Shown: positions 1,320-36,406 of the stretch, one piece after another
Position numbering within the stretch: position 1 is the first letter of the stretch
How the letters are laid out: every line of letters begins with the position of its first letter
Notes under the pieces: generated by a model
The model's input: the letters and a program-made list of their open reading frames with translations, nothing else
Database searches by the model: none
What the model was told of the DNA's origin: nothing
Program-made: the position numbers and the translations under genes
Source: a phage
DNA: 64,000 nucleotides
Assembly (NCBI GenBank): GCA_012813795.1
Contig: GCA_012813795.1_4087.1
Reading direction: 5' to 3' (one strand)

Positions 1320-2805
<1,486 letters not shown>

Positions 2806-2900
2806 TTATCGGTGATGGATGTTACCATTCTGGATGCCATGAAAATCCATTTTTCGTGTTTTTCGTTAATAATTATAGCACATATAAATGTCTCTTCCCA

Positions 2901-2979
2901 TAATTGATAAATAATAGCATATAATCAAGGAAAGAAAATCACTTATTATGTGGGTGCTTTTAAATAATTGATAAATAAT
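2901..2979 (+). repeat. two exact copies of TAATTGATAAATAAT (2901-2915, 2965-2979) upstream of gene 3023
   Basis: read directly; contains the GATAAATAAT late-promoter-like core. Confidence 0.8.
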
Positions 2980-3022
2980 CTTAAGCAGGAGAGTCCTGCA
3001 CAAAATTGACAAGGAGATTTTT

Positions 3023-3622
3023 ATGAGTCTTAATTCTTTTAACCGTAACTATGGTATGTCTGCTAACTCCCGTGAGTACTGGGGTGGTGATAATGGTTTT
3101 GTAACCATCGTTGTTGATCTACCAGCAGATGTTGAAGTTGGTGCTACCAAAGTAACTTCCGATGGTTCTGAACTACAAGATGAAGCACTACAAACTGCGA
3201 TCACTAACGCACAATACAACCAATTCATGCTAACCCAACTACTACAACAACGTGCTGTTCTAGTTACTACTTCTGTACTAGCTCTTGACACTGACGTAGT
3301 AATCCCAGCGGATTTCAAAACTGTTGGCGGTAACGTAGTTGCTTTCGGTACTTCTGGTGCTGATGTTGCTGGCGGTGCTGGTTCTGTTGCACTAACCTTC
3401 ATCTGCGAACGTCAAGACGTTTTCGCTAAACAAGATGTTCGTCCAGGTGCTGCTTACTCTGTTCCAGTTGATCCAACTGTTGAACTAGCTAAAGTAATCG
3501 CTCAAGCTAAATTCTTCCGTACTAAATCTTTCGTAGATGTTACTACTGATGGTGTTGGTGATGCTGAAGCTGCTAAAGCTGTAGCTATTAAAGTTCGTGC
3601 TGCTCTACCAGTTCAACTATAA
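3023..3622 (+). CDS. hypothetical abundant late protein (paralog of 3638..4330)
   Basis: extreme codon bias (CTA, CGT, GGT, ACT, GTT), AAGGAG RBS, shares QQRAVLVTTS and TF(I/L)xER motifs with its neighbour. Confidence 0.8.
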   Translation: MSLNSFNRNYGMSANSREYWGGDNGFVTIVVDLPADVEVGATKVTSDGSELQDEALQTAITNAQYNQFMLTQLLQQRAVLVTTSVLALDTDVVIPADFKTVGGNVVAFGTSGADVAGGAGSVALTFICERQDVFAKQDVRPGAAYSVPVDPTVELAKVIAQAKFFRTKSFVDVTTDGVGDAEAAKAVAIKVRAALPVQL

Positions 3623-3637
3623 TATAAGGAGATTAAC

Positions 3638-4330
3638 ATGTCTAATATTAATACTTCTTTTGAACGAATTAACGGTTATTCTTTTGACAAAATTCTAGGT
3701 TATTTCTGTGGTACTAACGCCCTAGCTTCTATCGCTGTTAGTAAACTAGGTGACGTTAACGTGCGTGTTACTGGTGCAGTTGGTTCTTTTGCTGGTCTAC
3801 AACGTTTTCTAAACACTGATATTCCTGAAGTTATTACCGAATATCTAAATGACAAAGGTATCATCCGTATCGACGGTACTCCATTCGAAGTTGCCACTGT
3901 TGAAGCTGATTACAATGCTTCCTACGCTGCTCAAACTAACGTTAAACGTCTAGTTGATGTTGTTCAACAACGTGCAGTTGTTCTAAGTACTTCTGAAATC
4001 GGTGGTAATGATGCTTCCGCTCCACTAGCAGTCGAAGGTTTCACTAACGCAGTTGATGGTGTACTAAGTGTTGGTACTGTTGATATTGCAAGTGCTTCTG
4101 TTGTTACTTTCCTAGTTGAGCGTGCGAACGTATTTGACAAAGACCTCGTATCTTTCCAAGGCGTTCCAAGTACTGAAATCGAAGAAGGTCGCCTACTTAT
4201 CGACGATCTAACTGGTATCCCAATGCTTGCAAAAGATGGCGTTACTGAAGTCTTCCTAAAATCCCAAGCTGCTGATGCTGCTGGTGATTTCGGTATCAAG
4301 ATGTTCAAATCTATCCCAGCAATGGTTTAA
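3638..4330 (+). CDS. hypothetical abundant late protein (paralog of 3023..3622)
   Basis: same codon bias; shared motifs QQRAVVLSTS and TFLVERANVFDKD; followed by a terminator. Confidence 0.8.
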   Translation: MSNINTSFERINGYSFDKILGYFCGTNALASIAVSKLGDVNVRVTGAVGSFAGLQRFLNTDIPEVITEYLNDKGIIRIDGTPFEVATVEADYNASYAAQTNVKRLVDVVQQRAVVLSTSEIGGNDASAPLAVEGFTNAVDGVLSVGTVDIASASVVTFLVERANVFDKDLVSFQGVPSTEIEEGRLLIDDLTGIPMLAKDGVTEVFLKSQAADAAGDFGIKMFKSIPAMV

Positions 4331-4342
4331 TAAATTAATACA

Positions 4343-4376
4343 AGAAAAGGAGAACATATTGTTCTCCTTTTTTTTA
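4343..4376. terminator. bidirectional rho-independent terminator
   Basis: GGAGAAC-atatt-GTTCTCC hairpin flanked by an A-run and a T-run. Confidence 0.7.
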
Positions 4377-5123
4377 TTTGTATGATTTGAAACCTTCAGG
4401 TAAACCAGGTAGATTCTCTAACCCTGCGTTCGCACTCACTAGCTTTGCATCTTCGTTATCACTATAATCATCAGTAGCTAATTTGCGACCCAAATCACGA
4501 ACAAAGTTATCAATAATCTCTTCTTCATCCGTTCCTGGGTGACCTTCGGCTTTTAATTTCTTCCAAAAGTATTCATTGTAATCAAATACAAATTCTACTT
4601 CGTTTGTATCAGGATTCAAAATTACATCCAAATCAATCCAAGGCTCTTTACGTAATGTATAGATTTCCTTTGAATACTCTTGTTGTGTAATTTCATCATA
4701 CTTATACGCATACTCAATGGCTTTCAATCGTTTATCATCACCTTCAGGCATTAACTCGATTACTTCCATATCATACTCTTTTTGAGTAATAGTATCAGTA
4801 CTTAACTTTGCGTCAAGTACTTTTAAATCGTACTCTTCACGTGTAATCTTAGAGTACTTTAATTCGACAGCCGCCTGTTCAATTAGATATTTTAGTGTAT
4901 CTACAACACCATATTTCTTTTTAATATCCAATTGTGCAACATCAACTTCATATTCAGTAAGATATGTTAGTTCTGCAACTTTCAAATCTGCTTCATAATC
5001 GTCATTATAATAGTATGCTTTAGCAATCTCTTTCGCTTTACCAGAAAGTCCCCAATGGGCGGGGACCATCCAGAAAGGTAATAACCTTTTCTTAGCCATT
5101 TTTCTTTCCAAAGATTTCTTCAA
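4374..5123 (-). CDS. hypothetical protein with three SHOCT-like ITxxEY repeats
   Basis: repeats ITREEYDLKV / ITQKEYDMEV / ITQQEYSKEI; true start may be the internal Met at about 5099. Confidence 0.5.
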   Translation of the reverse strand: MKKSLERKMAKKRLLPFWMVPAHWGLSGKAKEIAKAYYYNDDYEADLKVAELTYLTEYEVDVAQLDIKKKYGVVDTLKYLIEQAAVELKYSKITREEYDLKVLDAKLSTDTITQKEYDMEVIELMPEGDDKRLKAIEYAYKYDEITQQEYSKEIYTLRKEPWIDLDVILNPDTNEVEFVFDYNEYFWKKLKAEGHPGTDEEEIIDNFVRDLGRKLATDDYSDNEDAKLVSANAGLENLPGLPEGFKSYK

Positions 5124-5658: not shown

Positions 5659-6390
5659 TTAACAACCAGTTACATAGATTTTGTATACTGCGATACCAGT
5701 ATCTAATGTAACGTTCATCATACCAGTCTTGGTTAAACCAAGTGTTACTGATTCTGCATTAGATACACGAGCTAATGCTTGAAGAACACGGTCAATGTTA
5801 TAACCAAAGCCCAAACCTAATTCACCTTCAGTTTTAGAGAAAGCTAGAGCACCAACGTGGTTACTCTTGTTCTTCTCACCAACGTGGAAGTGAAGGGTGT
5901 CACCTTCAGTGTATGGGGTAACTAGTGAACTGAAAGATTTAAACACACCAGAGAAACTCTTTAGTTCCTGAACTTTAGCTGCACTAGGTGTAACCTGTAC
6001 GTCATATGGTTGTTCAGTAAAACGTGGTTGTGGTGGAATTAGTTTTTCAGCTTGTACCATAAAGGTAGTGCTTGCTTCTTCAGATTTGAATGCTAGGCTT
6101 TTAACAACACCATCTTTCAAATTAGAAGTGATAGTAGTACCTTCAGTACTGTAAGTCTTTAGGGACATTAGACCTTGTAGAAGACCCAAGTTACCTAGAC
6201 CAAAACGACCTTGAACTTCAGGAACGTCTTCTTTAGTGTATGCACGCATAACCAAAGTGCGGTCATCGGTATATGCTTCCATGTAAACGCGTTGACCTTC
6301 GCCACGGTCTTCACTGCTGATTGCGATACAAGAAAAATCAATACCGCTAGTGGTGTTAACTAGGTCACGTAGTACATTGCGTAGATCCAT
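5659..6390 (-). CDS. 45: sliding clamp (T4 gp45-like)
   Basis: N-terminus and RFGLGNLGLLQGLMSL resemble T4 gp45 (IYDLNGFLGILSL); GGAG RBS before the ATG at 6390; near the DNA polymerase. Confidence 0.55.
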   Translation of the reverse strand: MDLRNVLRDLVNTTSGIDFSCIAISSEDRGEGQRVYMEAYTDDRTLVMRAYTKEDVPEVQGRFGLGNLGLLQGLMSLKTYSTEGTTITSNLKDGVVKSLAFKSEEASTTFMVQAEKLIPPQPRFTEQPYDVQVTPSAAKVQELKSFSGVFKSFSSLVTPYTEGDTLHFHVGEKNKSNHVGALAFSKTEGELGLGFGYNIDRVLQALARVSNAESVTLGLTKTGMMNVTLDTGIAVYKIYVTGC

Positions 6391-6483
6391 TATATATTCT
6401 CCGTTTATTGTTTTATTCGTTAATGTCAAGTCTATGACAAGCACCATTATATCTCGTTAACAGTGCTTGTCTCAATTATTTTA

Positions 6484-10345: not shown

Positions 10346-10444
10346 TGTTTTATCTCCATGTGTTAATGAAAAAAATAGACACTCCACAATGTTCCTCGTG
10401 GAATGTCTCTATTATATCAGTACTTCTCAATGTGTCCCAAATTT

Positions 10445-10900
10445 TTAAAGAAGGTTTAAAACTTCTTTAAGATCAGCGATTAGCTTCTCGTACTCAGCAG
10501 CTTCTTCAGTACTCAACATATCGAATTCTTTCTTCATGTCCAGTACTTTTTTGCGTTCACTCAAAAGATTGAATACTTGTTGTGCAGATAGTTGGCGTGG
10601 TGGTCTTTCGGAGAAAGTGCCGTTAACTTCGTTGTAAATTTTACCAACTAGTTCAGATTTATCCCCTGTATATTCAATTTCATATACACTATCATCTAAT
10701 GGACAGAGCATAGTAACATCATACGATGCACTAGTTACCATACCATTTTTATCTACTGTTATTTTTAATGTATCTTCTGAAAATAATTTATGTGAATCAT
10801 ACCAATCCATTCCACACTCAGAAATATAATATGCAATATTCATTCCTTTCAATTCAGGTTCATTACCTTCATATTTTTTAAAGTTTTTTAAAGTTATCAT
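10445..10900 (-). CDS. putative tail fiber assembly protein / chaperone
   Basis: about 150-aa ORF immediately downstream of a tail fiber gene; by position only. Confidence 0.35.
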   Translation of the reverse strand: MITLKNFKKYEGNEPELKGMNIAYYISECGMDWYDSHKLFSEDTLKITVDKNGMVTSASYDVTMLCPLDDSVYEIEYTGDKSELVGKIYNEVNGTFSERPPRQLSAQQVFNLLSERKKVLDMKKEFDMLSTEEAAEYEKLIADLKEVLNLL

Positions 10901-10903
10901 ATA

Positions 10904-12514
10904 TCACCCATCAATAGTTTTCCATGAACCATTAACTAAAATTTGCAAATATTTATAGTATACACCACCAATGTTATCAGCAGAGTTTTTACCAACATCC
11001 TGCACAATTATACCACTAAGCATTGCACCAGATGGACAGATGAAAGTCCAAGATATTTCGTTGTGGCCTGGATTAAATAATTTTTGCTCAATATAGCGGG
11101 CATCTTGTACTGAACCGGTAGTGATTGTTACATTACCATTACCATCTGCCCATGCACCATTAACTGTTCTCACGATAGGTTTACCACCAACAGATGCGGA
11201 ATTGGCATTAACTGTTAATGAACCTGGAATATACAAAGAACCACCACTGTTAACTGTTACAGCACCACCACCAGCACGAAGTCTTAGTTCATTACCTTGG
11301 AAGTATACTGCGGCACGTTCACCACCACTAGCGTTCTGGAAGAATAAGTACAAATCACCACCACCACGAATACCAGCACGGTTAGCAATGTATAATTCAC
11401 CAGACATTGTATCACCAGTTTTACGAACAAAACGATCATTTGCAGTATTTTCGCTCATCGCAACTGATGGTTCGGAAATGTTATACAAAATTGCAGTGTT
11501 AAAGTGTGGTACGTCAATACCTGTTACTGTATGGTTATGGGTAATTGTACGTGCGTTCGCATCATCATAAATTGGTTGTGAAGTTGATAATGCAGTTGCT
11601 GCATTGTTACCATCTACACTAAATTCCATACGGGCATTCTTATCACCAAAGATTGCTGGACCACGATAGCCTCTACCATCATTCCATGCTCTACCACTAA
11701 TGAAAACAGCATCATCTGCATCACTACCGTTAGTACCTAGCATTTTACCAGTTCCATGAATATGGTCTGGAATAGTGAAAGTACTCGGTGTTAATGAACC
11801 ACCACCTGCAATAATTGCGTCAGTTTTGGTTATACCACTAGTGGTGATACTTCTTAAATATCCATCACGGTTCAAGTTTGGTACTTGTTTGGTTATTGTA
11901 CCATTAGCACCTTGCCACTGCCACCACATACCATCAGCAAAACACCAACCATCGGATGTTTTCCACGGTTTAGCTTGGGAGCCGTCACGACCACTCTGTC
12001 CACCAGTACTACCCGACATTTGTTCACGTATACTAGCAACGGTTTGTCCAGATGTCAAGCTATAATGCATAATACATCCAGGTTTAGCACTCGTGTACAA
12101 ACCATTAGCACCTTGAATTGATGAAGGTGTTGGGAATATAATATTCAATGTAGTTCCGCTAATAGAAGCAGTTGGAATTGATGACATTGAATAGGTTACT
12201 CTATCAACCTTAGTTCCAAGTATAGAATTGATATCCTGAATCTGTTGTTCAATTGGTGCAACTACATCGGCAGCACTTAACATTTCAATCCAGTTAGTAC
12301 CATCATGATACTTCAAAGTAAGAGTGTTTTTGTCAAATACTATCGCCCCTGCTTCACCAACAGGTAAATCCTGAACAGGTAGTATTACCGATGAAGAATT
12401 CATTCTAATTGGTCGAGGATTAGTTGGTGTACCACCTAGTACTATTAGATTCAATGAACCATTTTCCGCAGTACTGGTTACAGTATTCTGTGGATGATTA
12501 AAACTTATGCTCAT
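10904..12514 (-). CDS. tail fiber protein (gp12/gp37-like distal region with HxH motifs)
   Basis: Gly/Ser/Thr/Asn-rich; IPDHIHGTG and THNHTV motifs as in T-even fiber tips. Confidence 0.7.
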   Translation of the reverse strand: MSISFNHPQNTVTSTAENGSLNLIVLGGTPTNPRPIRMNSSSVILPVQDLPVGEAGAIVFDKNTLTLKYHDGTNWIEMLSAADVVAPIEQQIQDINSILGTKVDRVTYSMSSIPTASISGTTLNIIFPTPSSIQGANGLYTSAKPGCIMHYSLTSGQTVASIREQMSGSTGGQSGRDGSQAKPWKTSDGWCFADGMWWQWQGANGTITKQVPNLNRDGYLRSITTSGITKTDAIIAGGGSLTPSTFTIPDHIHGTGKMLGTNGSDADDAVFISGRAWNDGRGYRGPAIFGDKNARMEFSVDGNNAATALSTSQPIYDDANARTITHNHTVTGIDVPHFNTAILYNISEPSVAMSENTANDRFVRKTGDTMSGELYIANRAGIRGGGDLYLFFQNASGGERAAVYFQGNELRLRAGGGAVTVNSGGSLYIPGSLTVNANSASVGGKPIVRTVNGAWADGNGNVTITTGSVQDARYIEQKLFNPGHNEISWTFICPSGAMLSGIIVQDVGKNSADNIGGVYYKYLQILVNGSWKTIDG

Positions 12515-12554
12515 GTAAAAATCCTTTTTTGTTTAATATATATCATATTTATAT

Positions 12555-12863
12555 CTATAGTAAATCATTTTCCATATCATCCAATACGGAATCAATAATA
12601 TTTGCAGCTAACTTTTTAGGCATCTTGAACCATTCAGAGTTAGGTTGCCTTGTTGCATTCATTTGCTTTAATCTCTTATGCACTTCCTTTTCTGCTGTTC
12701 GTGCATCGTCAAACATAACCTGATGGTATACCTCAAAATCCCTGAATGGTGAAGCAGTCTGGTAAACACCTAAACGCTCTTTCATCTCTGATTTTGTAGT
12801 GAAGCCTATCTTTACATATTCAGGCCATGCACTATTAGTGATTACATAACATATTTGTGACAT
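12555..12863 (-). CDS. T5orf172 (MUG113)-like domain protein
   Basis: CYVITN...YVKIGFT...EWF pattern typical of the GIY-YIG-related T5orf172 domain. Confidence 0.6.
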   Translation of the reverse strand: MSQICYVITNSAWPEYVKIGFTTKSEMKERLGVYQTASPFRDFEVYHQVMFDDARTAEKEVHKRLKQMNATRQPNSEWFKMPKKLAANIIDSVLDDMENDLL

Positions 12864-12893
12864 AGATATCTCCTAGTATGGAGATATTTATTA

Positions 12894-13244
12894 TTAACTA
12901 ATTCTGAAGTTTACACCCGCATCTATCAGGCGTTGAAATGGATTTTGAGGATCAAACTCGGATGGGGTTTTAGGAGTGTTCAGTACTGGAGCATCAGCAT
13001 GTAACTTCGACATGCGTTCTTTGTATTTGTCAATATATTCTTCATACAACATGTCTTCTGAATCAGTACTCAATATATCTTCTATAAAATGATCAGTACT
13101 GTAATCCAGACGATCATCATTGTAATACAACGTCTCCGTAGCCTCATCATAACCCACCAACGTTCCATAAGGAACATTGATCTCAATTTTTGAGTACTGA
13201 CTCTTTAAGTACTCTTCTTTTTTAAAAATGTATACAGTTAACAT
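12894..13244 (-). CDS. hypothetical protein
   Basis: ORF within the endonuclease-like island. Confidence 0.4.
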   Translation of the reverse strand: MLTVYIFKKEEYLKSQYSKIEINVPYGTLVGYDEATETLYYNDDRLDYSTDHFIEDILSTDSEDMLYEEYIDKYKERMSKLHADAPVLNTPKTPSEFDPQNPFQRLIDAGVNFRIS

Positions 13245-13268
13245 AGTGAAAGCTTCCCTGCTTAGTGT

Positions 13269-14381
13269 TTATTCAAATGTATTTACAATCTCCAGTACTG
13301 TTTCAAGATACTTAGCATCAAAAGTTTCTGTGAATCCTGATGGCAACTCTTCAGTACTTACTACACCACTATCAATGTATTGTTTCAAAAACTTTTCCAG
13401 TACTAATGGTTTATGTCCATCTTCAAAGTAACGTTCTACCAGTACAGTGTGTTTAAAATCAGAATGACGACTTTGCTCATTTACACGGCGTTTCATATCG
13501 CCAGTGATTCCATACTTGTACACTGTCTTATCTTTATTAGTTAGTTTTTGAACATAGAAATATCCAGGTTTTGATGGCTGATATCCGTATTCACCACAAC
13601 CAGGACATCCCCTACCAGCAATGTGGGATTTTGGTGACTGTTGAAATATGCCATGTGTAGGACACGTTATTTTTACTGGAACAATACTACTTTCATACTC
13701 TACCGTACTGTAATCATACTTGTGACCATGAACTAGTTTTGCTTCAGAAATAAATTGTTCTGTTGTTCTTCCACCTTTACCAGAACATACACCACAACCT
13801 GATTTACCAAGTATCAATGTTTTTGGATCAACTTCCCAATCATGTTTCCCTTCATTACAATGTACTGTTACTTTAGTTGCTCTGTTAACATACTTTGTTT
13901 TTGAGAAACTAAGTTTATCACCATAGTTACGTTTGACAATTTTTATAAATTCGTCATTTGTATGCACAGTATTAATATTACAAACGTTACACCCAGCACC
14001 AGTTAATAACTTGTTCGGTGTTATGTCAAAATACCCACCATGTTCAGTACAGAATATTGAAACTTTAGTTTTTGCATTTACATAATTCAATTTATCAAAT
14101 TTAAATTTGTCAGCACCAAATTTTTTTTCAACTTTAGAAATGAAATCATCATTGTTTGAACGCTGTGACATGTTACTGTAACAATTTGAACATGTACATG
14201 AAATATGACGAATCGCTGATTTTGTATTTTCAATACCACATTTATTACATTTTAATGTAGTTTTACTTGATTTAAAAATCATTGAATCAAAATCAAACTC
14301 ACCATACATTCCGTATTTTTTAATCATATTTTCTTTAAAGTTTTTAATTAACATTTTATTCATCTCGGTGATTGTCTTCAA
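13269..14381 (-). CDS. homing-endonuclease-like protein: four tandem zinc-ribbon modules plus a C-terminal GIY-YIG/T5orf172-like domain
   Basis: repeats ...CxxHGxF...LxGxGCxxC x4; C-terminal GYFYV...YKYGIT...R..E. Confidence 0.6.
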   Translation of the reverse strand: MKTITEMNKMLIKNFKENMIKKYGMYGEFDFDSMIFKSSKTTLKCNKCGIENTKSAIRHISCTCSNCYSNMSQRSNNDDFISKVEKKFGADKFKFDKLNYVNAKTKVSIFCTEHGGYFDITPNKLLTGAGCNVCNINTVHTNDEFIKIVKRNYGDKLSFSKTKYVNRATKVTVHCNEGKHDWEVDPKTLILGKSGCGVCSGKGGRTTEQFISEAKLVHGHKYDYSTVEYESSIVPVKITCPTHGIFQQSPKSHIAGRGCPGCGEYGYQPSKPGYFYVQKLTNKDKTVYKYGITGDMKRRVNEQSRHSDFKHTVLVERYFEDGHKPLVLEKFLKQYIDSGVVSTEELPSGFTETFDAKYLETVLEIVNTFE

Positions 14382-14420
14382 TGTGATAATTATATATAAT
14401 TAAATTTACCATGTCAAGCT

Positions 14421-14454
14421 TTTTTGTAAAAGAAAAGGGACTCCGAAGAGTCCC
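14421..14454 (-). terminator. terminator after the major capsid gene (UUCG tetraloop)
   Basis: GGGACTC-ttcg-GAGTCCC on the minus strand followed by TTTTCTTTT. Confidence 0.7.
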
Positions 14455-14477
14455 TAGTATATTTAAATTCTTTGTTA

Positions 14478-15653
14478 TTACATGAAAGTAACGTTTTTGA
14501 TAGCGATTTTGCTGTAGTAGTCAGCAGCATTACCCAAACTTGAAGTTGAGTCAGTGAGTTGCACGTAGCCATAGCGTGTTAAAAATGTCGTGACCAATTC
14601 TCCAGTGTTAGGGTCCATTACAGTACCAGAAGCCATTAGTGGGATGTATGGGCAATAGAATACACCAGCATCAGTTTCTGCATTACCTTTATAACCAATT
14701 AGAATATCTTCTACATCTGAGGCGTAAGTATCGACAAATATACGCATGGTGCTGTTTAGAGTACCAACGAATTTAACGTTAGTTGGTGCTTCAAAAGTAC
14801 CTTCAGTAGTACGTGCAAAGCTGGAAGTAGTTGCAGACTGTAGAATGGTTAGAGCAGTTGGGGAAACAACAGCCCAGTTCGCAGCACCACGTTTGGTACG
14901 ACGAGCAACTTCGTTCGCTTGACGGTTGATTAGGGTAGCTAGAGCAGCGTGCTCATCACCTACGAAGGTTGCAACGCCAGTAACTTTAGATTGGTCATAA
15001 GTTACAGCAGCAGCACCAGGTAGTGCACGTAGACGGCTTAGTAGCTCTTGGTCGATTTCAACGGTAACTTCTTGAGCGATAGCAGCCATTAGTTCAGCTT
15101 CAACGTCGATACCATGTTGAGATTGTGCATCTTGTGCAGATTCAACAGTCCAACGTGCAGATAGACGACGAGATTTCGCTTCAACAGTTTCACGTAGGAT
15201 ACGGATGTTAACGCGACGACCCATAGTACCTTCTAGTTGGCTAGTAGGAGCAGCTTGTGGGTTACTGTTGTCAGAGTTTAGCTCACCAGTGTAAGATTTA
15301 GCAATCTTGAATGGAGATAGCATTTCTTCGCCAGCTACAACACCTGGTGCGTTGTCAGCGTATTGAACACGTAGAGTGTGGATTTGACCAACTGGGCCAG
15401 TCATTGGTTGAACACCGATGATTTCGTTAGCGATAACGGTTGGCATTACACGACGCATAATTGGTAGAATCACTTTGTTTAGAGTAGCGATGTTACCAGC
15501 AGAAGTTGCACCAGAGGTTGCAGATTCTTGTAGCATAACTTTGCGATGGTTATCAAGTACGGTTTCCATTACAGATTTACGAGTACCTTGAAGACCTTCA
15601 ACTAGTTTCTCTTTAACTGCTACCCATTTGGATTCATTTAGTAGTTGTGACAT
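14478..15653 (-). CDS. 23: major capsid protein (T4 gp23-like)
   Basis: IGVQPM, VEAKSRRL, GYKGNAETDAGVFYCPY align to T4 gp23; strong CTA/CGT/GGT bias. Confidence 0.9.
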   Translation of the reverse strand: MSQLLNESKWVAVKEKLVEGLQGTRKSVMETVLDNHRKVMLQESATSGATSAGNIATLNKVILPIMRRVMPTVIANEIIGVQPMTGPVGQIHTLRVQYADNAPGVVAGEEMLSPFKIAKSYTGELNSDNSNPQAAPTSQLEGTMGRRVNIRILRETVEAKSRRLSARWTVESAQDAQSQHGIDVEAELMAAIAQEVTVEIDQELLSRLRALPGAAAVTYDQSKVTGVATFVGDEHAALATLINRQANEVARRTKRGAANWAVVSPTALTILQSATTSSFARTTEGTFEAPTNVKFVGTLNSTMRIFVDTYASDVEDILIGYKGNAETDAGVFYCPYIPLMASGTVMDPNTGELVTTFLTRYGYVQLTDSTSSLGNAADYYSKIAIKNVTFM

Positions 15654-17583: not shown

Positions 17584-18426
17584 TTAGAATTTTGGTTGTG
17601 ATTTTGGTAGTGGGGAACGAGACTTAGAAGAACCAGTGGTTACTTTCTTAACGTCTTTCATTACGCCTTTGCCGCTATCCATAACATTATTCATGTCGTC
17701 TGGTACAGTGTGAGATTCAGTGTCTACGCCATCAAATTTGTCATCAACTACTGGAGTTGAGCTTTTAGCGATTTTTACTGGAGCTACGCCTTGTACTGGA
17801 GATTTAGCTTGGGAAGCGACTGGGGATTTAGTATTTGCACCAGCTTTTTCTTTCTTATCAACATCAGCAACTGCTTTTAGTTTGAAAGACTCACCAACTT
17901 TTTCATCACCGAATTGAACATCAGCAAAATCATCACCGCCGTCTTCGGAACCAACTTCTAGATCAACTTCTTCTTCGCCACCTACTGGTTCTTCAGCGTC
18001 TAGGTCAACTTCACCTTCGCCGGAGATTTCATCAAACATTTGTTGTAGGCCACGGAAAGCATCTTGAATGGAAGCCCATTGGTCTTCGGAAGGGACTTCT
18101 TCACCTTCTGCACCAACTTCACCTTCAGAATCTTCTTCACCAGCTTGGAATTCGATATCATCTTCAGCACTCTTGTCTTCTTCACCAAGAGAATATTCGA
18201 TTTGACTATTAAGACCAGCATCTGGGGAAACGTCGAAGTCTTCTTCTAGTTTCTCTTCTTTGTCGTCTTCATCGCAGCATTCTTCGTCGTCCATGCTTTC
18301 TTCTAGTTCTTTGTTAATTTCTTGTGCTTGTTCAACAAAGTACTTACGCATTTTTTTATCAGCTACATCTTGCTCGCCGTTAGCAAAAGCTTCGATTGCT
18401 TCTTGTAGTAGTTTTAAATTAGCCAT
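17584..18426 (-). CDS. acidic prohead core / internal head protein
   Basis: Asp/Glu-rich; ATG at 18426 with GGAGGA RBS; late-promoter-like motif upstream. Confidence 0.55.
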   Translation of the reverse strand: MANLKLLQEAIEAFANGEQDVADKKMRKYFVEQAQEINKELEESMDDEECCDEDDKEEKLEEDFDVSPDAGLNSQIEYSLGEEDKSAEDDIEFQAGEEDSEGEVGAEGEEVPSEDQWASIQDAFRGLQQMFDEISGEGEVDLDAEEPVGGEEEVDLEVGSEDGGDDFADVQFGDEKVGESFKLKAVADVDKKEKAGANTKSPVASQAKSPVQGVAPVKIAKSSTPVVDDKFDGVDTESHTVPDDMNNVMDSGKGVMKDVKKVTTGSSKSRSPLPKSQPKF

Positions 18427-28030: not shown

Positions 28031-29062
28031 TTATAATGATCTATAGATTTGTATTAGTAGATTCTTGTCGAACATTGGAGAATCAATTTCCATGATTTGT
28101 TGTAAAACTATCTCATCAACTGATTCAGTACTTTCAAAGTGTTCACCTTCTTCCAAAAGTTCTTTGATACTTTGTTTACTTGTAACAACGTTAAACTCAC
28201 GAATATTATAAAGTTTAGTAAAAGTATCACGAATAAAACTAATCTCATCAGTTGTGATTGGAATATCAACCTGAACTTTCGAGATAGAGTTATCTTGTAA
28301 GTAATAACTTGGATCAGTTAGTAGCTCTGACAAAGTAAATGTTCTGTATTTCGGTGCAGCATCCCATGATTTGAATGTTGGTTCTGAACCGTGTTCAAGA
28401 ATCATAACACCTCTAGCATCATCCCATGTGTCTGAGAAGTTATGAGGGAAACAGTTACCAGTATAAATTACACGAGTTCCTTTAGATGTGAGTTTGGACT
28501 GTCGTTTATGGAAATGCCCACTAAAAACATACTCACAACCACCAAAAGAACCTTCAGTCTCTTTACCATGATCTGGCATTTCTACCATTTTGTTAAGCAA
28601 ATATCCAGGCAATTCAAGATGACCAAATACATATTTGCTTTGTAATTTAGGTAGCATTTTGTATTCATCTTCAATCATAAATGGGATGAAAGTACAATCA
28701 TCAATTGTTGTAATTTCATTAATGAACTCGATGTTTTCATAAACTTGTGCCATATTAATACTTGTAATATCGCGTTTGTTTTTATGATACATGTCATGGT
28801 TCCCAACTAAGAAGTAAACTTTATCAAAGTTGTCATTTAGTAATTGGAGAATTTGTAAACCATAGTTTAATGTTTGAATATTAATGTTGCTGCGGTTATG
28901 GAAGTAATCTCCCATAAACACACATACTTTAATACCTTTCTTTTTGGCTTCATCAATCATAAATTTAATGAAGTTCAAACAATCTTCGTTGTGCTGCTTA
29001 CTGTTATTCTTTAATCCTAAATGAATATCAGTGAATGTAATTGCTTTATCAAATAGTGCCAT
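28031..29062 (-). CDS. 47: recombination nuclease subunit (SbcD/Mre11-like, T4 gp47)
   Basis: phosphoesterase motifs DIHLG, GDYFH, GNHD; start refined to the ATG at 29062. Confidence 0.85.
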   Translation of the reverse strand: MALFDKAITFTDIHLGLKNNSKQHNEDCLNFIKFMIDEAKKKGIKVCVFMGDYFHNRSNINIQTLNYGLQILQLLNDNFDKVYFLVGNHDMYHKNKRDITSINMAQVYENIEFINEITTIDDCTFIPFMIEDEYKMLPKLQSKYVFGHLELPGYLLNKMVEMPDHGKETEGSFGGCEYVFSGHFHKRQSKLTSKGTRVIYTGNCFPHNFSDTWDDARGVMILEHGSEPTFKSWDAAPKYRTFTLSELLTDPSYYLQDNSISKVQVDIPITTDEISFIRDTFTKLYNIREFNVVTSKQSIKELLEEGEHFESTESVDEIVLQQIMEIDSPMFDKNLLIQIYRSL

Positions 29063-29888
29063 CGTCATTTTTCCTTTCAATCATATTCATTTCGATTTCA
29101 ATCTGTCTTGTATGTGATGGTGTAAAACCATGCATCTCAAGAAGGTCGTCGCGAATGTTACGTACATTCTTCTCACTGTTCAAAATAGAACGGAAGCTAT
29201 TGTTAACGAATGACGTATAGTATGAGAAAGGATTTAGTTGGACAGCAGGTTTATCTTTCTTATACAAGATACTCTCTTTGAAGAGAAGTGCATTTTTAAC
29301 TAATTGTATTCTAGCATCACCCATCATTTCATCCAAATACGTATAATTTCTGTAGTTAGATTTGTGAGAGATCTCTTCGGCTAGTTTAATGAACATTTTA
29401 CCGAGTTCATTTGTGATTTTACCATGTGTTAAGTAGAAATCGCCATCTTCCAAGTCGCCTTTCCAATGTGAACGAACAACTTCATACAGAATACCTTCAT
29501 TATCAACGATATAATGTTTAAATGGTTCAAAATTCACTCGTGTATCTGGTGGAATGTGCTCATCAGTGATAACTCTAATCACCACTTCATCCAGTGGTAC
29601 ATCATTTACGAATAGACCGTGCTCATCAGCATATTCCTTTGCTTTCTTAGCACTCATATTCTCTTTTTCGCGAACACTATCAAGCATTTCATTATTCAAA
29701 CGTTTGATTCGTGCTGCTTTTGCCTTTTCAAGTAATTCTTCTGTGATTTCAGACTCATGAAACACAATATAATCATACATACCATAACTTTTATCCAAAA
29801 GCCAGCAGTATGATATCTTACTTTTATGTATTTCACGTAATAAGTCTGCGTTATTCAGATACTTCTTACGCTTCGGCTTGTTTATCAT
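29049..29888 (-). CDS. 55: late-transcription sigma factor (gp55-like) with insertion
   Basis: YLNNADLLREI and NPFSYYTSFVNNSFRSIL resemble T4 gp55; 55-47-46 order as in T4; GGAGAG RBS. Confidence 0.5.
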   Translation of the reverse strand: MINKPKRKKYLNNADLLREIHKSKISYCWLLDKSYGMYDYIVFHESEITEELLEKAKAARIKRLNNEMLDSVREKENMSAKKAKEYADEHGLFVNDVPLDEVVIRVITDEHIPPDTRVNFEPFKHYIVDNEGILYEVVRSHWKGDLEDGDFYLTHGKITNELGKMFIKLAEEISHKSNYRNYTYLDEMMGDARIQLVKNALLFKESILYKKDKPAVQLNPFSYYTSFVNNSFRSILNSEKNVRNIRDDLLEMHGFTPSHTRQIEIEMNMIERKNDDGTI

Positions 29889-29972
29889 TGTAACTCTCCA
29901 TGTAATGACCAATAGGCACAATCCGTGTGCCATCGCTAATATTATAGCACTAAAATCAGCTTTGTCCCACCT

Positions 29973-31069: not shown

Positions 31070-33220
31070 ATGGATACTAAAATTGGACTAGACCCTAGTC
31101 AGAGTAACAAATATGGTGCTAAAGTAAGTAATGTACAATCAAAACCAATCCAAAGCACACATACTGATAGAATTTATGACGATAAAAAGATTTCTGATTT
31201 TATTATTGACAATGAAAATGTTTTATTAAAATACAATTCAGCAACGTGGCACTTTACCTTGTTTGCCTTAGATAAAGATGACTTTAAGATGTTCTGGGAA
31301 AATCCAGATGCTGAAGTCCAACGTTATGTAATCACTGAAAGTGGCGTTACTGGTAAGTATAATATCACAAATGTTCAGATGACGCAAGCTGGACCGTCAA
31401 CACCTGGTATGACAACTAACTATACATTTAATACTGCTTCAATAAGTATGTCAGAAAACAATAGTATGAGTTTTTATGATGAGTTGATATCATTAAGTAA
31501 TAAACTTCGTTATCATAAATTTATGGATTTACCATTAATACTTGAACTCAAGTTTATTGGATACAATGAAGATGGCGTGCCACAAGTTATACCAAATACA
31601 ACAAAACGTTGGTCTGTTAAGATTAATAACGTTAAAGCAAGTGCTAGTGCAACTGGTAGTACAATGTTATATACCATTAACTTAGTACACAATCGTGCCG
31701 CTTTAGTCGATAACATTGAATGGACATTAAAAGAAACATTCTCATGCACTGCTGCACAATTTGGTACATTTTGTTATGACTTAGAAGATAAGTTAAATGA
31801 AATGTCAGAACAACAGTATGGTTATTTGTGTATGAAATTTCCAGAACTTGCAGATGGTAAATTTTTTGAATTTAAAGTTGCACCTGAACTAGCTGATATG
31901 TTCATAAACTATGATTCTAAACAAATGACTGAAGTAACTTCAACAAAAAATGGTTCACAGGGTTCTAAAAACTTTTCATGGAATCCAAGTACACCAATAT
32001 CAAGAATAATTGATGATGTTATCGATGCATGTACCGTTCGTGAAGGTGACAGTACTAGCGTTCGTCAATTTGTTAATATAATCCCACTTAAACAATATGT
32101 TGGTTTTGATAATTTACGTAACACATCAGTATATAAAGTTATTTTTAATATTGTTCGTTTTCGTATTGGTGATGTTGTCCATGAATCCGATTTACAGCCA
32201 GAAAACTTTAACTTCGAGACATTCCTAGAAAACTCTGAACGTTATCTTGACCCTAGAGATAATGAAGAAAAGTTAAGAATGAAAATATACAATTATCAAT
32301 TCAGTGGATTGAATAATGAAATATTAGATTTGGATATGAATTTCGACCAACAATTTTATGTAGCTACTACACGTAACCCAGGCCCAATACAAGACCAAGG
32401 TAACAGAAGTGGTACACATGCATCACAAGAATTGACCATACAAGGGGTTCAATATAGTAACCCGTTGGATGCTTGGAATAAAACTAGTGATATAAGAAAA
32501 GCACGAAGTAAAGGTGAAATTATAACACAAGCCCAAACAGCTTTACTTAATGAAATAGATGAGCAATTAAAAAATGCAATGGGTGTGGGTAATCAAGCAG
32601 AACAAGATGCTTATATGAATTATAAAGTTCATGTCCTTCCTGAATACATTGAAGATTATCGTAGTGTATATGAAGAAAATGATATGGGTGCTGATGGTAT
32701 TGGCGACCGTAGAGGTGAAATATTCACTATACCAACTGAAGCAACAAATAACCATACAACCTTATCAGCATCTGATAACGATAATAGCAGTACATATGAA
32801 ATGGACAGACGTAAAATACGCGACAACTATTATAACCGTCCATTTATGTGTAAGTTGGATATGCGTGTTATTGGTGACCCATATTGGTTGGGATGGGGTG
32901 ATCATGCATATCTTCAATATTTGGATATGTTGGTGAATGGTGAAGCATTATATATAAATCCAGAGGATTTCAAATATGCAAATTATATTTCAACCGAAGC
33001 ATATTTGTTATTGAAATTGCAACCTGTAGTTTCAATTAATGATAATACTGGTATTTTGGATATAACCACACCAACTACATTCAACGAAACAATCTATCGC
33101 GTAAACAAAATAATTCATGATTTTGGTACAAACGGCACTTTCACACAACAAATTCAAGGTGCTATTGTCGCTCGTGCACTTAAACGTAAAGATAGTATAA
33201 TAAACCCAGGTGGTGAGTAA
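31070..33220 (+). CDS. putative baseplate hub protein (gp27-like by position)
   Basis: large ORF immediately upstream of the gp5-like spike, overlapping TAATG junction. Confidence 0.35.
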   Translation: MDTKIGLDPSQSNKYGAKVSNVQSKPIQSTHTDRIYDDKKISDFIIDNENVLLKYNSATWHFTLFALDKDDFKMFWENPDAEVQRYVITESGVTGKYNITNVQMTQAGPSTPGMTTNYTFNTASISMSENNSMSFYDELISLSNKLRYHKFMDLPLILELKFIGYNEDGVPQVIPNTTKRWSVKINNVKASASATGSTMLYTINLVHNRAALVDNIEWTLKETFSCTAAQFGTFCYDLEDKLNEMSEQQYGYLCMKFPELADGKFFEFKVAPELADMFINYDSKQMTEVTSTKNGSQGSKNFSWNPSTPISRIIDDVIDACTVREGDSTSVRQFVNIIPLKQYVGFDNLRNTSVYKVIFNIVRFRIGDVVHESDLQPENFNFETFLENSERYLDPRDNEEKLRMKIYNYQFSGLNNEILDLDMNFDQQFYVATTRNPGPIQDQGNRSGTHASQELTIQGVQYSNPLDAWNKTSDIRKARSKGEIITQAQTALLNEIDEQLKNAMGVGNQAEQDAYMNYKVHVLPEYIEDYRSVYEENDMGADGIGDRRGEIFTIPTEATNNHTTLSASDNDNSSTYEMDRRKIRDNYYNRPFMCKLDMRVIGDPYWLGWGDHAYLQYLDMLVNGEALYINPEDFKYANYISTEAYLLLKLQPVVSINDNTGILDITTPTTFNETIYRVNKIIHDFGTNGTFTQQIQGAIVARALKRKDSIINPGGE

Positions 33221-35883
33221 TGGCAGATACAAGTAAAAAGTTTGCAAAGGAACAGTTGGGTCGTTTTGACCCATCTTATCCACAATTAGCAACCGTTATG
33301 GATAACCGAGATCCTACGAAATCTGGTAAGCTAAAAGTATGGATACAAGGTTCACAAAGTGATAAAAACTCTAAAGATTCATGGATTGAAGCTTCATATA
33401 TGGCCCCGTTTGCTGGTAAAACCCCAGGAATACCAAGTGCAGATAGTTATGGACAGTATCCAAAAGGTTATGGTTTTTGGGCCGTACCACCAGATGTGGG
33501 ATGTACAGTTGTTGTTATTTTTGCACAAGCACGTACATTCCAAGCTTACTGGATTGGGTGTGTTTATGACCAGCGTATGAATACGATGGTTCCTGGTATG
33601 GCAACTGCTGATACAAATTACAATGGCACAGATATGCCATTACCAGTAACTGACTATGATCGTAACACAATCACAACTGACATGCAAGACAAATATATTA
33701 ACGTTCCTGCTGTTGAAGGATTGAAAAAACAAAACTTATTATACGATGATGAAGCAGGTGTTGCAAACCGCAGCAGTACTCGTCAAACAACCAGTACTGT
33801 ATATGGTATGAGTACACCTCGTGGTAATAGTTTTATTCTTGATGATGGATATACAGAAGAAGAATTGACCAAGCCAACATGGGATCAAGACCCTGATGGA
33901 TACCAAGACACACAATTTAACAACCCAGTTAATGACACTCGTGTTGGTTCCCGAAAGAATGAAGGTATTGTTATTAAAACACGTAGTGGTGCACAACTTC
34001 TTATTTCTGAAACCACTGGTAATGTTTTATTAATTAACCGTGATGGTACGGCTCGTATTAAATTCACTGGCGATGGTGATATTGAAATGCACTGTGATAA
34101 AAACATAAACATTCGTGCAGGTCAAGATATTAACATGGTTGCAGGTCGTTCTTATAATATTGAAAGTGGGCAAGACTTCAATACTCGTGTTGGTGGAAAT
34201 ACCAAACTGGAATTGGTCGGTAATTTGGATGCTAAGGTCAATGGTCAGGTTGTAATTAATTCTGGTGCTGATCTTCGTTTGGTTACTGGTGCTTCATTAC
34301 GTCTTCAAAGTGGTAGCAGTACTGATATTACGGCTGGCTCAACAGCATCTGTTAAAGGTTCATCCTCTGCAAACGTTATTGGTGGCTCATCCGTTAACAT
34401 TAGTGGTGGTGGTCAAAACCTAACAGTTGATAGTGCTGGTAACAGTGGTAGTGCTGCATTCATGGCTCCTGATTTTAAAACACCATCAGTGGGTCTTAAT
34501 GATCACATTCATATGATTGCTAACTGGAAAGATGCAGAAAACCACGGTGATAGAGTTGATCCTGGTATAAGTGGTGGTGGTCAAGGTAGTACAACATCTC
34601 CAGTTGAGCCACAACCAGCAAATGATGTTCAACCTACACTTGCAGAGCAACAAGAAACAGACGCAATTCAATTTGTAAATTATGCCCCAGAGACAAGTGA
34701 AGTTCAAACACAAGATTTAATGGCGGCTGAACCAGGAATGACTGGTTATTCGCAGACATTTGAAGGTTTGCATATGCTTATGCCATGTAGCGGTACTATT
34801 CGCCAGAATGGTTATTGGGGTAAGGGTGTAACGACCGAGAATGGAACCAAGCGTGATAGTAGTGGATGGGAAATTCAAGCCCGTGGAAGTGTGGTTGCAC
34901 CAGATGGTGGGATTGTTGGTATCAGTGGTGATGCTCTTATTATTGAACATAAATCTGGTTATAAATCTGTTTTCTATGGTTTAACTTCTGACCTATTCAA
35001 TAAAGATGTTGTTGAAAAAGGACAAGTAATAGGAACTGCTAATGGTATATTACGATTTGAAATAAGAGTTCGCTCATCTAATATCTATGGTTTTAGTGGT
35101 TCAGTTGATCCTGGATTATTCTACACAACTGTAACTGGTCAGGGTTCTGCTGCGGCGAACAAAACATTAATTGGTGGTCAACCATCAACACAAAATAACC
35201 CTAAAGATGTGGTAAGACCATCTGCTGATAGTGATGAATTAGTAATATCAACTCGAATCCGAACAATTGGAACTGGATATTCACAACGTGGTTCACGACA
35301 TGTTCCGCGTCGTAGGGAACGTAAACCTCGAAATGCAGGAACTGCACCAAAAGCAGAACAAAATTATAACGTAGGTAATGTTGATAAAACAGCAGTTGGG
35401 TGGAAAGTTGCCCCAGGTGATTCACAGTTTGTATCTGAACTTAAAGAACATGAAGGTACGATCCAATATCAAACTGCACTTGGATATTTCAGAAATGGAA
35501 AATTCTGGCGTTATATTGATAGTCGTGGTTTTCCTACAATTGGATATGGACATCTTATTGATGGTGGTGAAGATTTCTCTGGTGGTATAACTGAAGCAGA
35601 AGCTGATGCAATGCTAGTACGAGACAGTACTCAAGCAATCAATGATGCAAAATCAATATATGCTGCATGGGATTTAAAAACACCAGTTATTGCTCAACAA
35701 GTACTATGTCAAATGGTATTCCAAATGGGCAAATACAAAGTACAAAAATTCAAGGGTATGCTTGGGTGTTTAGCTAAAGGTGATTATCGTGGTGCTGCTG
35801 CTCATATTCGAAGTTCCGCTTGGTATCGTCAAACAACTCGTCGTGCTGAGTTAATGGCACGTAGAATTGAGGCATGTCAATAA
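33220..35883 (+). CDS. 5: baseplate central spike (gp5-like): N-terminal OB region, beta-helix repeats, degenerate LytM-like domain, C-terminal lysozyme
   Basis: KLKVWIQG N-terminus; G-rich repeats; M23-like pattern without catalytic His; C-terminal TIGYGHL...VFQMGK...SAWYRQTTRRAE lysozyme. Confidence 0.75.
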   Translation: MADTSKKFAKEQLGRFDPSYPQLATVMDNRDPTKSGKLKVWIQGSQSDKNSKDSWIEASYMAPFAGKTPGIPSADSYGQYPKGYGFWAVPPDVGCTVVVIFAQARTFQAYWIGCVYDQRMNTMVPGMATADTNYNGTDMPLPVTDYDRNTITTDMQDKYINVPAVEGLKKQNLLYDDEAGVANRSSTRQTTSTVYGMSTPRGNSFILDDGYTEEELTKPTWDQDPDGYQDTQFNNPVNDTRVGSRKNEGIVIKTRSGAQLLISETTGNVLLINRDGTARIKFTGDGDIEMHCDKNINIRAGQDINMVAGRSYNIESGQDFNTRVGGNTKLELVGNLDAKVNGQVVINSGADLRLVTGASLRLQSGSSTDITAGSTASVKGSSSANVIGGSSVNISGGGQNLTVDSAGNSGSAAFMAPDFKTPSVGLNDHIHMIANWKDAENHGDRVDPGISGGGQGSTTSPVEPQPANDVQPTLAEQQETDAIQFVNYAPETSEVQTQDLMAAEPGMTGYSQTFEGLHMLMPCSGTIRQNGYWGKGVTTENGTKRDSSGWEIQARGSVVAPDGGIVGISGDALIIEHKSGYKSVFYGLTSDLFNKDVVEKGQVIGTANGILRFEIRVRSSNIYGFSGSVDPGLFYTTVTGQGSAAANKTLIGGQPSTQNNPKDVVRPSADSDELVISTRIRTIGTGYSQRGSRHVPRRRERKPRNAGTAPKAEQNYNVGNVDKTAVGWKVAPGDSQFVSELKEHEGTIQYQTALGYFRNGKFWRYIDSRGFPTIGYGHLIDGGEDFSGGITEAEADAMLVRDSTQAINDAKSIYAAWDLKTPVIAQQVLCQMVFQMGKYKVQKFKGMLGCLAKGDYRGAAAHIRSSAWYRQTTRRAELMARRIEACQ

Positions 35884-35917: not shown

Positions 35918-36406
35918 ATGAGTAAATGGGAAATTAAACCTGATGATGCACAGTATTTGAAAGAAATTAAAGAGTTTGAAGGTACTATTGCTTTCCAAAC
36001 TAAATTAGGTTATTTCAAGAATGGTAAATTCAGAGTTTATAAAGATAGCCTAGGACTAGATACCATTGGTTACGGTCACTTAGTACTAAAAGGTGAAAAT
36101 TTCAGTGCAGGGCTAACTGAAGCAGAAGCAGAAGCACTACTTCAAAAAGATTCCCTAAATGCATACAGAGAAGCTAACGAGATTTATGATCAATTCGGTA
36201 TGTCTGCACCAATTCAGGTACAACGTGTACTTTGGATGATGATATTCCAAATGGGTAAATCTCGTGTATTGAACTTTAAGAAAGCGATGGCAGCATTGGG
36301 TTGTGGTGATTATAAAACCGCTGGCAAAGAAATGCGTGATTCCGCTTGGTATCGTCAAACAACTTCTCGTGCTGAAAAAATGGCAAGGATTGTTGAATCC
36401 GTATAA
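35918..36406 (+). CDS. e: lysozyme (T4 e-like, GH24)
   Basis: EFEG...YKDSLGLDTIGYGHL...MIFQMGKSRV...SAWYRQTTSRAEKMA aligns to T4 lysozyme. Confidence 0.9.
   Translation: MSKWEIKPDDAQYLKEIKEFEGTIAFQTKLGYFKNGKFRVYKDSLGLDTIGYGHLVLKGENFSAGLTEAEAEALLQKDSLNAYREANEIYDQFGMSAPIQVQRVLWMMIFQMGKSRVLNFKKAMAALGCGDYKTAGKEMRDSAWYRQTTSRAEKMARIVESV

Follow-up and report, generated by a model that had tools for sequence, protein, structure and literature searches.

RaK2-like jumbo phages carry a pair of small proteins that recur prominently in analyses of their virions. In RaK2 itself, gp106 and gp107 are two of the five proteins labelled on the sodium dodecyl sulfate gel, where they were called 'two distantly related proteins'; they run at their predicted mass and are therefore not cleaved (PMC3622015). 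Their phAPEC6 orthologues reach 69.8% (gp210) and 69.9% (gp211) sequence coverage in virions, next to 74.9% for the capsid protein and 68.0% for the sheath (PMC7247149). In CBB the corresponding values are 56.4% (CBB_271) and 91.3% (CBB_270), the latter the highest of 55 proteins (PMC5259590), and the orthologues of GAP32 are annotated as virion structural proteins. Here we describe the corresponding gene pair and its control elements at positions 2880-4376 of a 64,000-nucleotide stretch of phage DNA (NCBI GenBank assembly GCA_012813795.1, contig GCA_012813795.1_4087.1), the whole of which we call the window. Presence in virions is known from mass spectrometry of the orthologues (phAPEC6, CBB and RaK2), and the window phage itself from its genes only. 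The locus is almost certainly a late, high-expression operon for two abundant virion paralogues. An earlier sequence-only reading of the DNA had proposed abundant virion proteins, a view that would suffer if proteomics found them absent from virions and weakly expressed; the orthologues are instead among the best-covered or most visible virion species in all three phages. We further propose, with a probability of roughly 0.5, that both products are accessory components of a T=28 capsid and sit on its outer face as decoration, cement or fibre anchor.

Comparison with deposited genomes places the locus firmly within this group. The window is about 99% identical to phage A4 (ON286972.1; Escherichia, genus Asteriusvirus, 355 kb), with 99.4% across positions 2800-4400, and 72 further RaK2-like jumbo phages, with hosts in Escherichia, Klebsiella, Salmonella, Erwinia, Yersinia, Serratia, Pectobacterium, Cronobacter and Xanthomonas, match the same region at 63-84% nucleotide identity. 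Nucleotide matches of the gene pair itself were found in these 73 RaK2-like records only. Gene 1 is A4_26 and gene 2 is A4_25, both labelled 'structural protein' in the A4 record, and both belong with RaK2 gp107 and gp106 to PHROG 9326 ('virion structural protein'), an orthologous family whose members are 99% identical in A4 and about 55% identical in Eneladusvirus and Mimasvirus. All 73 related records, among them G17, phAPEC6, RaK2, pEa_SNUABM_12, CBB, GAP32, XaC1 and 7t3, keep the order RNase H (-), gene 1 (+), gene 2 (+), third structural gene (-), so that the tandem paralogues diverge from RNase H and converge with the third structural gene. The same order is found in a distant 311-kb metagenomic contig (L033), the proteins of which are barely recognisable as relatives. 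Orthologous loci of the RaK2 group share with the window the gene order, the pairing of paralogues, the upstream elements and the terminator; only the exact 16-bp duplication of the window sets it apart. The transcription unit is a self-contained late unit of a RaK2-like jumbo myovirus, with the following parts, given in window coordinates and nucleotides (nt):

2900..2925, + strand: distal late-promoter-like element, with the repeat at 2900-2915, the core ATAAATA at 2907-2913 and, after 5 nt, ATATAAT at 2919-2925.
2964..2979, + strand: proximal late-promoter-like element, the second copy of the repeat, with the core ATAAATA at 2971-2977.
2985..2999, + strand: predicted 5'-proximal leader stem-loop, GCAGGA-gag-TCCTGC, seven nt 3' of the proximal element.
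3011..3016, + strand: Shine-Dalgarno sequence of gene 1, AAGGAG, 6 nt 5' of the ATG, read from the sequence and kept in all relatives.
3023..3622, + strand: gene 1, 199 residues, 20.9 kDa, isoelectric point (pI) 4.5; orthologues A4_26, RaK2 gp107, phAPEC6 gp210, CBB_271, GAP32_265 and 121Q 618.
3626..3631, + strand: Shine-Dalgarno sequence of gene 2, AAGGAG, within the 15-nt intercistronic spacer, read from the sequence.
3638..4330, + strand: gene 2, 230 residues, 24.4 kDa, pI 4.4, a paralogue of gene 1 that carries an additional helical insertion; orthologues A4_25, RaK2 gp106, phAPEC6 gp211, CBB_270, GAP32_264 and 121Q 617.
4342..4376, bidirectional: intrinsic terminator hairpin, with the stem at 4342-4374 followed by eight U, which also serves the convergent (-) gene.

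Both genes lie exactly where the sequence-only reading had placed them, and the kinship it had drawn from shared motifs is borne out. BLASTP aligns the two products with 34% identity across 86 residues (E 5e-5), and they have in common the blocks QQRAV-x-x-TS and TF-x-x-ER-x-x-VF-x-K. Each matches PHROG 9326 over its full length (E 9.6e-82 for gene 1, 1e-77 for gene 2). Comparison of the two profiles, built with no shared sequences, returned a probability of 98.7% (E 1.9e-16, 190 columns), which rose to 99.8% when two sequences were shared. Judged by these alignments, genes 1 and 2 are true paralogues. A profile of both, searched against 1.84 billion representative proteins, retrieved only 41 clusters, all unnamed and all PHROG 9326; the family is specific to this phage clade, with no bridge to a characterised family. 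Its distant members are paired too: on the 311-kb contig, P0137 lies next to P0134. Between these two distant paralogues, at 5940..5985 of the contig, lies a GC-rich hairpin (AGCGGGT...ACCCGCT) followed by TTTAATT, a candidate internal attenuator that could set unequal expression of both genes; the 15-nt spacer of the window has no hairpin.

Codon usage fits heavy expression of the pair, which had been credited with some of the strongest codon bias in the window. Among the 50 window open reading frames (ORFs) of at least 90 residues, the effective number of codons (Nc; median 40.3) is lowest in gene 1 (26.9) and third lowest in gene 2 (31.3), and the major capsid protein gene stands at 33.2. 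Leucine codons show a related peculiarity. CTA, the rarest leucine codon of E. coli, encodes 12 of the 14 leucines of gene 1, 14 of 17 in gene 2 and 24 of 30 in the major capsid gene (14478..15653, -), with 24 of 83 in the DNA polymerase gene. The window was found to hold no tRNA gene, and none of the six tRNAs reported for fEgEco12, a related phage, is a tRNA-Leu. With an Nc of 29.7, the gene at 17584..18426 (-) ranks second in the window for codon bias; it encodes a 280-residue 'virion structural protein' of PHROG 15696 and corresponds to A4_7, which the A4 record places between the genes for portal and prohead protease. The likely counterpart in phAPEC6, gp228c, which was matched by size and position only, has 16.7% coverage in virions. 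Given this high codon bias and low virion coverage, the 280-residue protein may be a scaffold or core component that is made in bulk and mostly removed.

Upstream of the pair, the sequence-only reading had pointed to two exact 15-bp copies of a promoter-like motif. The duplication is indeed exact and extends to 16 bp: ATAATTGATAAATAAT occurs at 2900-2915 and 2964-2979, 64 nt apart, and is the only exact direct repeat of at least 16 nt within 150 bp in the 64-kb window, where no further copies of ATAATTGATAAATAAT were found even at 2 mismatches. Its core, ATAAATA, is the motif detected by MEME upstream of 35 CBB structural genes, and also in GAP32, and was likened to the T4 late promoter TATAAATA (PMC5259590). 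Many ORFs of the window, that of the capsid protein included, have a correctly oriented ATAAATA 3-57 nt 5' of their start. The longer pattern ATAAATA-N5-ATA occurs at 9 sites against 0.82 expected, a number that no shuffled sequence reached, and every site is 5' of a same-strand ORF; the genes so preceded include virion genes, for instance that of the capsid protein. The nine ATAAATA-N5-ATA(T/C) sites (2907, 12891(-), 15706(-), 16920(-), 22784(-), 23382, 36851, 58505 and 61027) suggest that the late-promoter motif is bipartite, with ATAAATA and ATA(T/C) separated by 5 nt, where the published description gives ATAAATA and an A/T-rich downstream region only. A cognate factor is encoded as well, a 294-residue gp55-like sigma (29049..29933, -; PHROG 12791, E 1.5e-150; PHROG 234 'late sigma transcription factor', E 3.9e-17), the gene of which sits among baseplate and structural genes. 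A scan of the region for sigma-70 promoters gave no matches above chance.

T4 late promoters are read by gp55 together with gp33 and the gp45 clamp, and transcription starts 6-7 nt after the element. If the same geometry applies here, the predicted start sites are at about 2919-2920 (distal) and 2983-2984 (proximal). The likeness extends to an AT-rich core at about -10 that matches 7 of 8 positions (GATAAATA, present twice here), to the lack of a -35 element, to sites placed 5' of late virion genes and to the gp55-like sigma; the elements differ from those of T4 in that the first base is not fixed as T and an extra conserved ATA block follows 5 nt downstream. Homologues of gp33 and gp45 were not found in CBB by its authors (PMC5259590). 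With a core identical to the published late-promoter motif of the clade and a gp55-like sigma in the same window, the promoter-like reading of the duplicated motif stands. Presumably, host RNA polymerase with the phage sigma reads both tandem elements, which would drive a bicistronic mRNA for two acidic paralogues of about 21 and 24 kDa; the ribosome-binding sites of both genes are of consensus type.

Conservation helps to decide whether both elements matter. ATAAATA is present at 102-128 nt and again at 47-60 nt 5' of the gene 1 ATG in 16 of 17 distinct upstream regions, the exception being the most divergent relative (L030), which has one degenerate element. In the RaK2-like relatives the distal element lies 116-128 nt 5' of gene 1. 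The two elements are spaced 55-68 nt apart in relatives, with an intervening sequence that is not conserved, and a pair of them, TATAAATA and TGATAAATA, is likewise present in the 311-kb contig. Since two elements were kept in nearly all these regions and in the contig across an unconserved spacer, the tandem arrangement is ancestral and under selection. It is nevertheless conceivable that the duplication has no function of its own, with one ATAAATA an active promoter and the other a relic or a site for something else. Full 16-nt identity of the two copies is confined to the A4 lineage, relatives having about 11-12 nt in common (TTGATAAATAA); only the distal copy follows the ATAAATA-N5-ATA pattern of other late promoters; and only the proximal copy has strongly conserved flanks, TGATAAATAAC(A/T)TTAAGCAGG, at 52-60 nt from the ATG, being nearly invariant in Asteriusvirus, Alcyoneusvirus, Eneladusvirus, Mimasvirus, the Xanthomonas phages and metagenomic relatives. 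We regard this single-promoter explanation as unlikely, because every pair-carrying relative but L030 has two elements at similar spacing, down to 43% protein identity, which argues for selection on both.

The leader between the proximal element and gene 1 adds a further conserved feature. As T4-type transcription begins 6-7 nt after the element, the leader stem would lie 1-2 nt from the mRNA 5' end, and transcripts from the proximal promoter would start just ahead of it. The RNAalifold consensus of the leader contains 6 pairs, 3 of them with compensatory changes, and the window leader folds at -13.9 kcal/mol (z -2.4). Every relative shows a short stem-loop at this position, and a stem of other sequence occupies the place in RaK2 (GTAAG/CTTAC) and in the relatives L029 (TTTAG/CTAAA), L030 (GGAC/GTCC) and L033 (GGAAGAA/TTCTTCC), the last three read by eye. 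The L029 stem was absent from the energy-minimised fold, and shuffled sequences fold as well as the leaders of RaK2 and L030; among other late leaders in the window, no comparable 5'-end stem was found. Stem-loops at the 5' terminus protect E. coli mRNAs from 5'-end-dependent decay, and the present one may shield the operon mRNA likewise and so raise its yield. It resembles stabilising stem-loops of bacterial mRNAs such as the ompA leader: it is short and GC-rich, is predicted to lie no more than 1-2 nt from the mRNA 5' end, and belongs to a gene with very high expression. It differs from leaders of the ompA type in the unusual conservation of its GCAGG/CCTGC stem sequence, and a sequence-specific factor is also possible; the start site on which the comparison rests is a predicted one. 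The hairpin is not followed by a U run, and a role as attenuator for the distal promoter was therefore ruled out.

At the 3' end of the operon, the terminator merits the description 'strong' that it had been given. The hairpin has a folding energy of -18.8 kcal/mol on the + strand (z -5.9), and 0 of 200 shuffled sequences were as stable; on the - strand it is weaker (-15.5 kcal/mol). A stable GC-containing hairpin followed by a U run is the hallmark of intrinsic (Rho-independent) terminators, and the record of phage G17 annotates a terminator at the same place.

What the two proteins might look like was approached by structure prediction. AlphaFold models, built with 32-33 homologues each, reached a mean predicted local distance difference test (pLDDT) score of 79 and a predicted template modelling score of 0.75-0.76. 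In both models the first 20-24 residues are disordered and lead into a two-layer alpha/beta sandwich that contains a helix of 26 residues. The N-terminal arm, predicted at a pLDDT below 50, is the most conserved segment, with R8, G11, G22 and N24 invariant in both paralogues. The products are acidic and slightly hydrophobic. Sequence searches of the PDB returned nothing meaningful for either protein, Foldseek found no match in the PDB with E < 0.09, and the structure searches gave no HK97-fold, tube or Hcp match; the BFVD search yielded uncharacterised phage proteins only. Pfam contains no family for either protein, the sole match (KdgT) being far below threshold, and the label 'hemagglutinin repeat-containing' on phAPEC6 gp211 is unsupported, as no Pfam family was matched. 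The sequence-only reading had seen no resemblance to gp23 or gp24, and the searches agree: the pair has no sequence match in the PDB, whereas the capsid protein of the window matches T4 gp23 at 1e-39.

Low-resolution cryo-electron microscopy of 121Q and phAPEC6 provides the context in which a place for the pair can be sought. Both phages have a T=28 shell of a 391-residue gp23-like capsid protein, with unassigned densities for an elongated protein that is as numerous as the capsid protein (1:1), a protein at the hexamer centres that anchors fibres, and a vertex protein. The PDB holds no solved RaK2-like capsid, and the capsid protein of the window matches T4 gp23 only. Acidic and unprocessed, with a codon bias above that of the capsid gene and a conserved disordered arm, the two paralogues have the profile expected of shell accessory proteins that become ordered on binding. 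In gpD-like proteins a terminal arm typically becomes ordered in this way. The N-terminal arm of 20-25 residues might thus bind the capsid lattice, disordered alone and ordered once bound, and the pair may account for decoration densities of 121Q and phAPEC6, including one equal in copies to the major capsid protein. Decoration and cement proteins such as T4 Soc and Hoc and lambda gpD are likewise small, acidic, unprocessed and very abundant late proteins encoded outside the main head cluster. They have no sequence or fold similarity to the pair, the capsid binding of which is putative. A bolder version, that the paralogues are a previously undescribed class of capsid cement, each clamped by its conserved arm, and that tandem late promoters and 5' hairpin evolved for the stoichiometric demand, is more speculative, and we hold it only tentatively.

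Several points weigh against placing the pair on the shell. The arguments for it are circumstantial. No homology or shared fold was found with known capsid decoration proteins (Soc, Hoc, gpD, Dec, Psu and others), and the predicted fold resembles none of them. The authors of the phAPEC6 study considered that the elongated density is possibly a domain of the capsid protein itself. Coverage is not stoichiometry, and other well-covered small phAPEC6 proteins are equally eligible for the decoration densities (gp347, 75%; gp306c, 66%; gp253, 66%). One lineage (L029) has only a single gene-1-like paralogue in the same synteny, and the pair is surrounded by replication genes, outside the head module.

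The alternatives place the pair elsewhere in the particle. One such place is the interior of the head, where the two proteins might, for instance, build the 'inner body' of 121Q and phAPEC6. This body, 91 x 18 nm as seen by bubblegram imaging, has no assigned proteins and would need hundreds of copies of a small protein, and tandem paralogy combined with abundance recalls the inner-body genes of phiKZ. Such a location is improbable nonetheless. At a pI of 4.4-4.5 and with slight hydrophobicity, the proteins would be unfavourable inside packed DNA. Internal proteins of T4 and phiKZ are processed by the prohead protease; here no protease-type cleavage motif is conserved across both paralogues, there is no sign that a targeting peptide is removed, and the RaK2 proteins are present at full predicted mass, uncleaved (PMC3622015). 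For the inner body, moreover, the phAPEC6 authors favoured RCC1-like proteins. Of the options 'decoration, internal or other virion proteins' that the sequence-only reading had left side by side, the evidence therefore favours decoration over internal. A position on the tail surface or in fibres, as sheath decoration rings or as anchors of the 'hairy' whiskers on tail and head, is less probable again. phAPEC6, 121Q and CBB do bear unassigned fibres and tail decoration proteins, but decoration of the tail is confined to two or three annular levels, which implies a low copy number and poorly fits visible gel bands and a codon bias above that of the capsid protein; GAP32, for which the CBB paper notes no such whiskers (PMC5259590), keeps both genes.

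The remaining proposal is a published one. From size, abundance and beta-strand propensity, the RaK2 genome paper suggested that the tail tube, the polymer within the contractile sheath, is formed by one of the two proteins (PMC3622015). The size (21-24 kDa), the abundant gel bands and the predicted richness in beta-strands are suitable (PMC3622015), and the sheath-adjacent tube candidates of phAPEC6 (gp275c, gp274c and gp273c, matched to RaK2 ORF042-044 by size only) have a mere 9-30% coverage. This low coverage means that proteomics alone does not settle the tube question, a further point against the shell assignment. The tail-tube proposal for the pair is nevertheless not supported, because the modelled fold is a generic alpha/beta sandwich with no tube match, not the beta-sandwich of tail tubes (T4 gp19, Hcp-like), and because separate tube homologues lie beside the sheath gene. 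Genes 1 and 2 match no tube family and are not adjacent to a sheath gene, whereas RaK2 ORF042, 043 and 044, which immediately follow the sheath gene, fall to tail-tube PHROGs: 4542, 13438 and, as a weak match, 45. Homologues of ORF042 are named 'tail tube protein' in RefSeq (RaK2, PBECO4) and extend to PA5oct, Atu_ph07 and RsoM2USA. We consider a tube function the least probable of the roles weighed here, and accessory proteins outside the capsid our preferred reading of the pair. Two other tail candidates were ruled out. The 'major tail protein' CBB_112 is not the real tail tube, being only an immunoglobulin-domain (Big_2) protein, and the 887-residue ORF 33220..35883 (+) is not the sheath, being the baseplate hub/lysozyme; the sheath gene lies outside the window. 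Right after this hub/lysozyme gene, a 162-residue ORF (35918..36406, +) matches the C-terminal lysozyme part of the hub family (profile 727-885), so that the lysozyme domain is duplicated as a separate small gene with its own ATAAATA elements upstream.

Some observations concern the neighbourhood of the operon. The convergent neighbour at 4374..5123 (-) is A4_24 (PHROG 13349, 'virion structural protein'), a K/E/Y-rich protein with a pI of 4.6, which uses the same bidirectional terminator; all relatives, and the 311-kb contig with them, keep it in synteny with the pair. Proteins of this type are labelled structural in GAP32, CBB and A4, and the phAPEC6 member, gp212c, is missing from Table 1 of the phAPEC6 virion proteins. 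Further along, within the block of replication genes, a 262-residue ORF (5659..6447, -) belongs to PHROG 12062, of unassigned function; its phAPEC6 counterpart by position and size, gp215c, is found in virions with 26% coverage. The window phage and the deposited A4 genome also differ by an indel of about 730 bp, between about 10,350..14,480 of the window and 216,345..221,206 of ON286972.1, the window being shorter.

Much of this locus was already known: the genes are annotated, their products have repeatedly been found in virions, their kinship as paralogues was described in 2013, and publications of 2014-2017 reported the late motif. The papers on JP4 and fEgEco12 say nothing on these two proteins. 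The present analysis adds the architecture of tandem promoters and leader hairpin, evidence against the tail tube, by which a published functional guess is corrected, and a candidate assignment for capsid densities. The current picture of phage biology is unchanged by these results. RaK2-like jumbo phages (Asteriusvirus, Alcyoneusvirus and relatives) are under development for therapy against E. coli and Klebsiella. The pair are the most obvious candidates for the decoration proteins of their T=28 capsids, and naming them would help to explain how such large shells are stabilised. The conserved high-expression cassette, with its tandem late promoters, 5' hairpin and strong terminator, could serve as a reusable part in these phages, either to express late genes or for display on the capsid.

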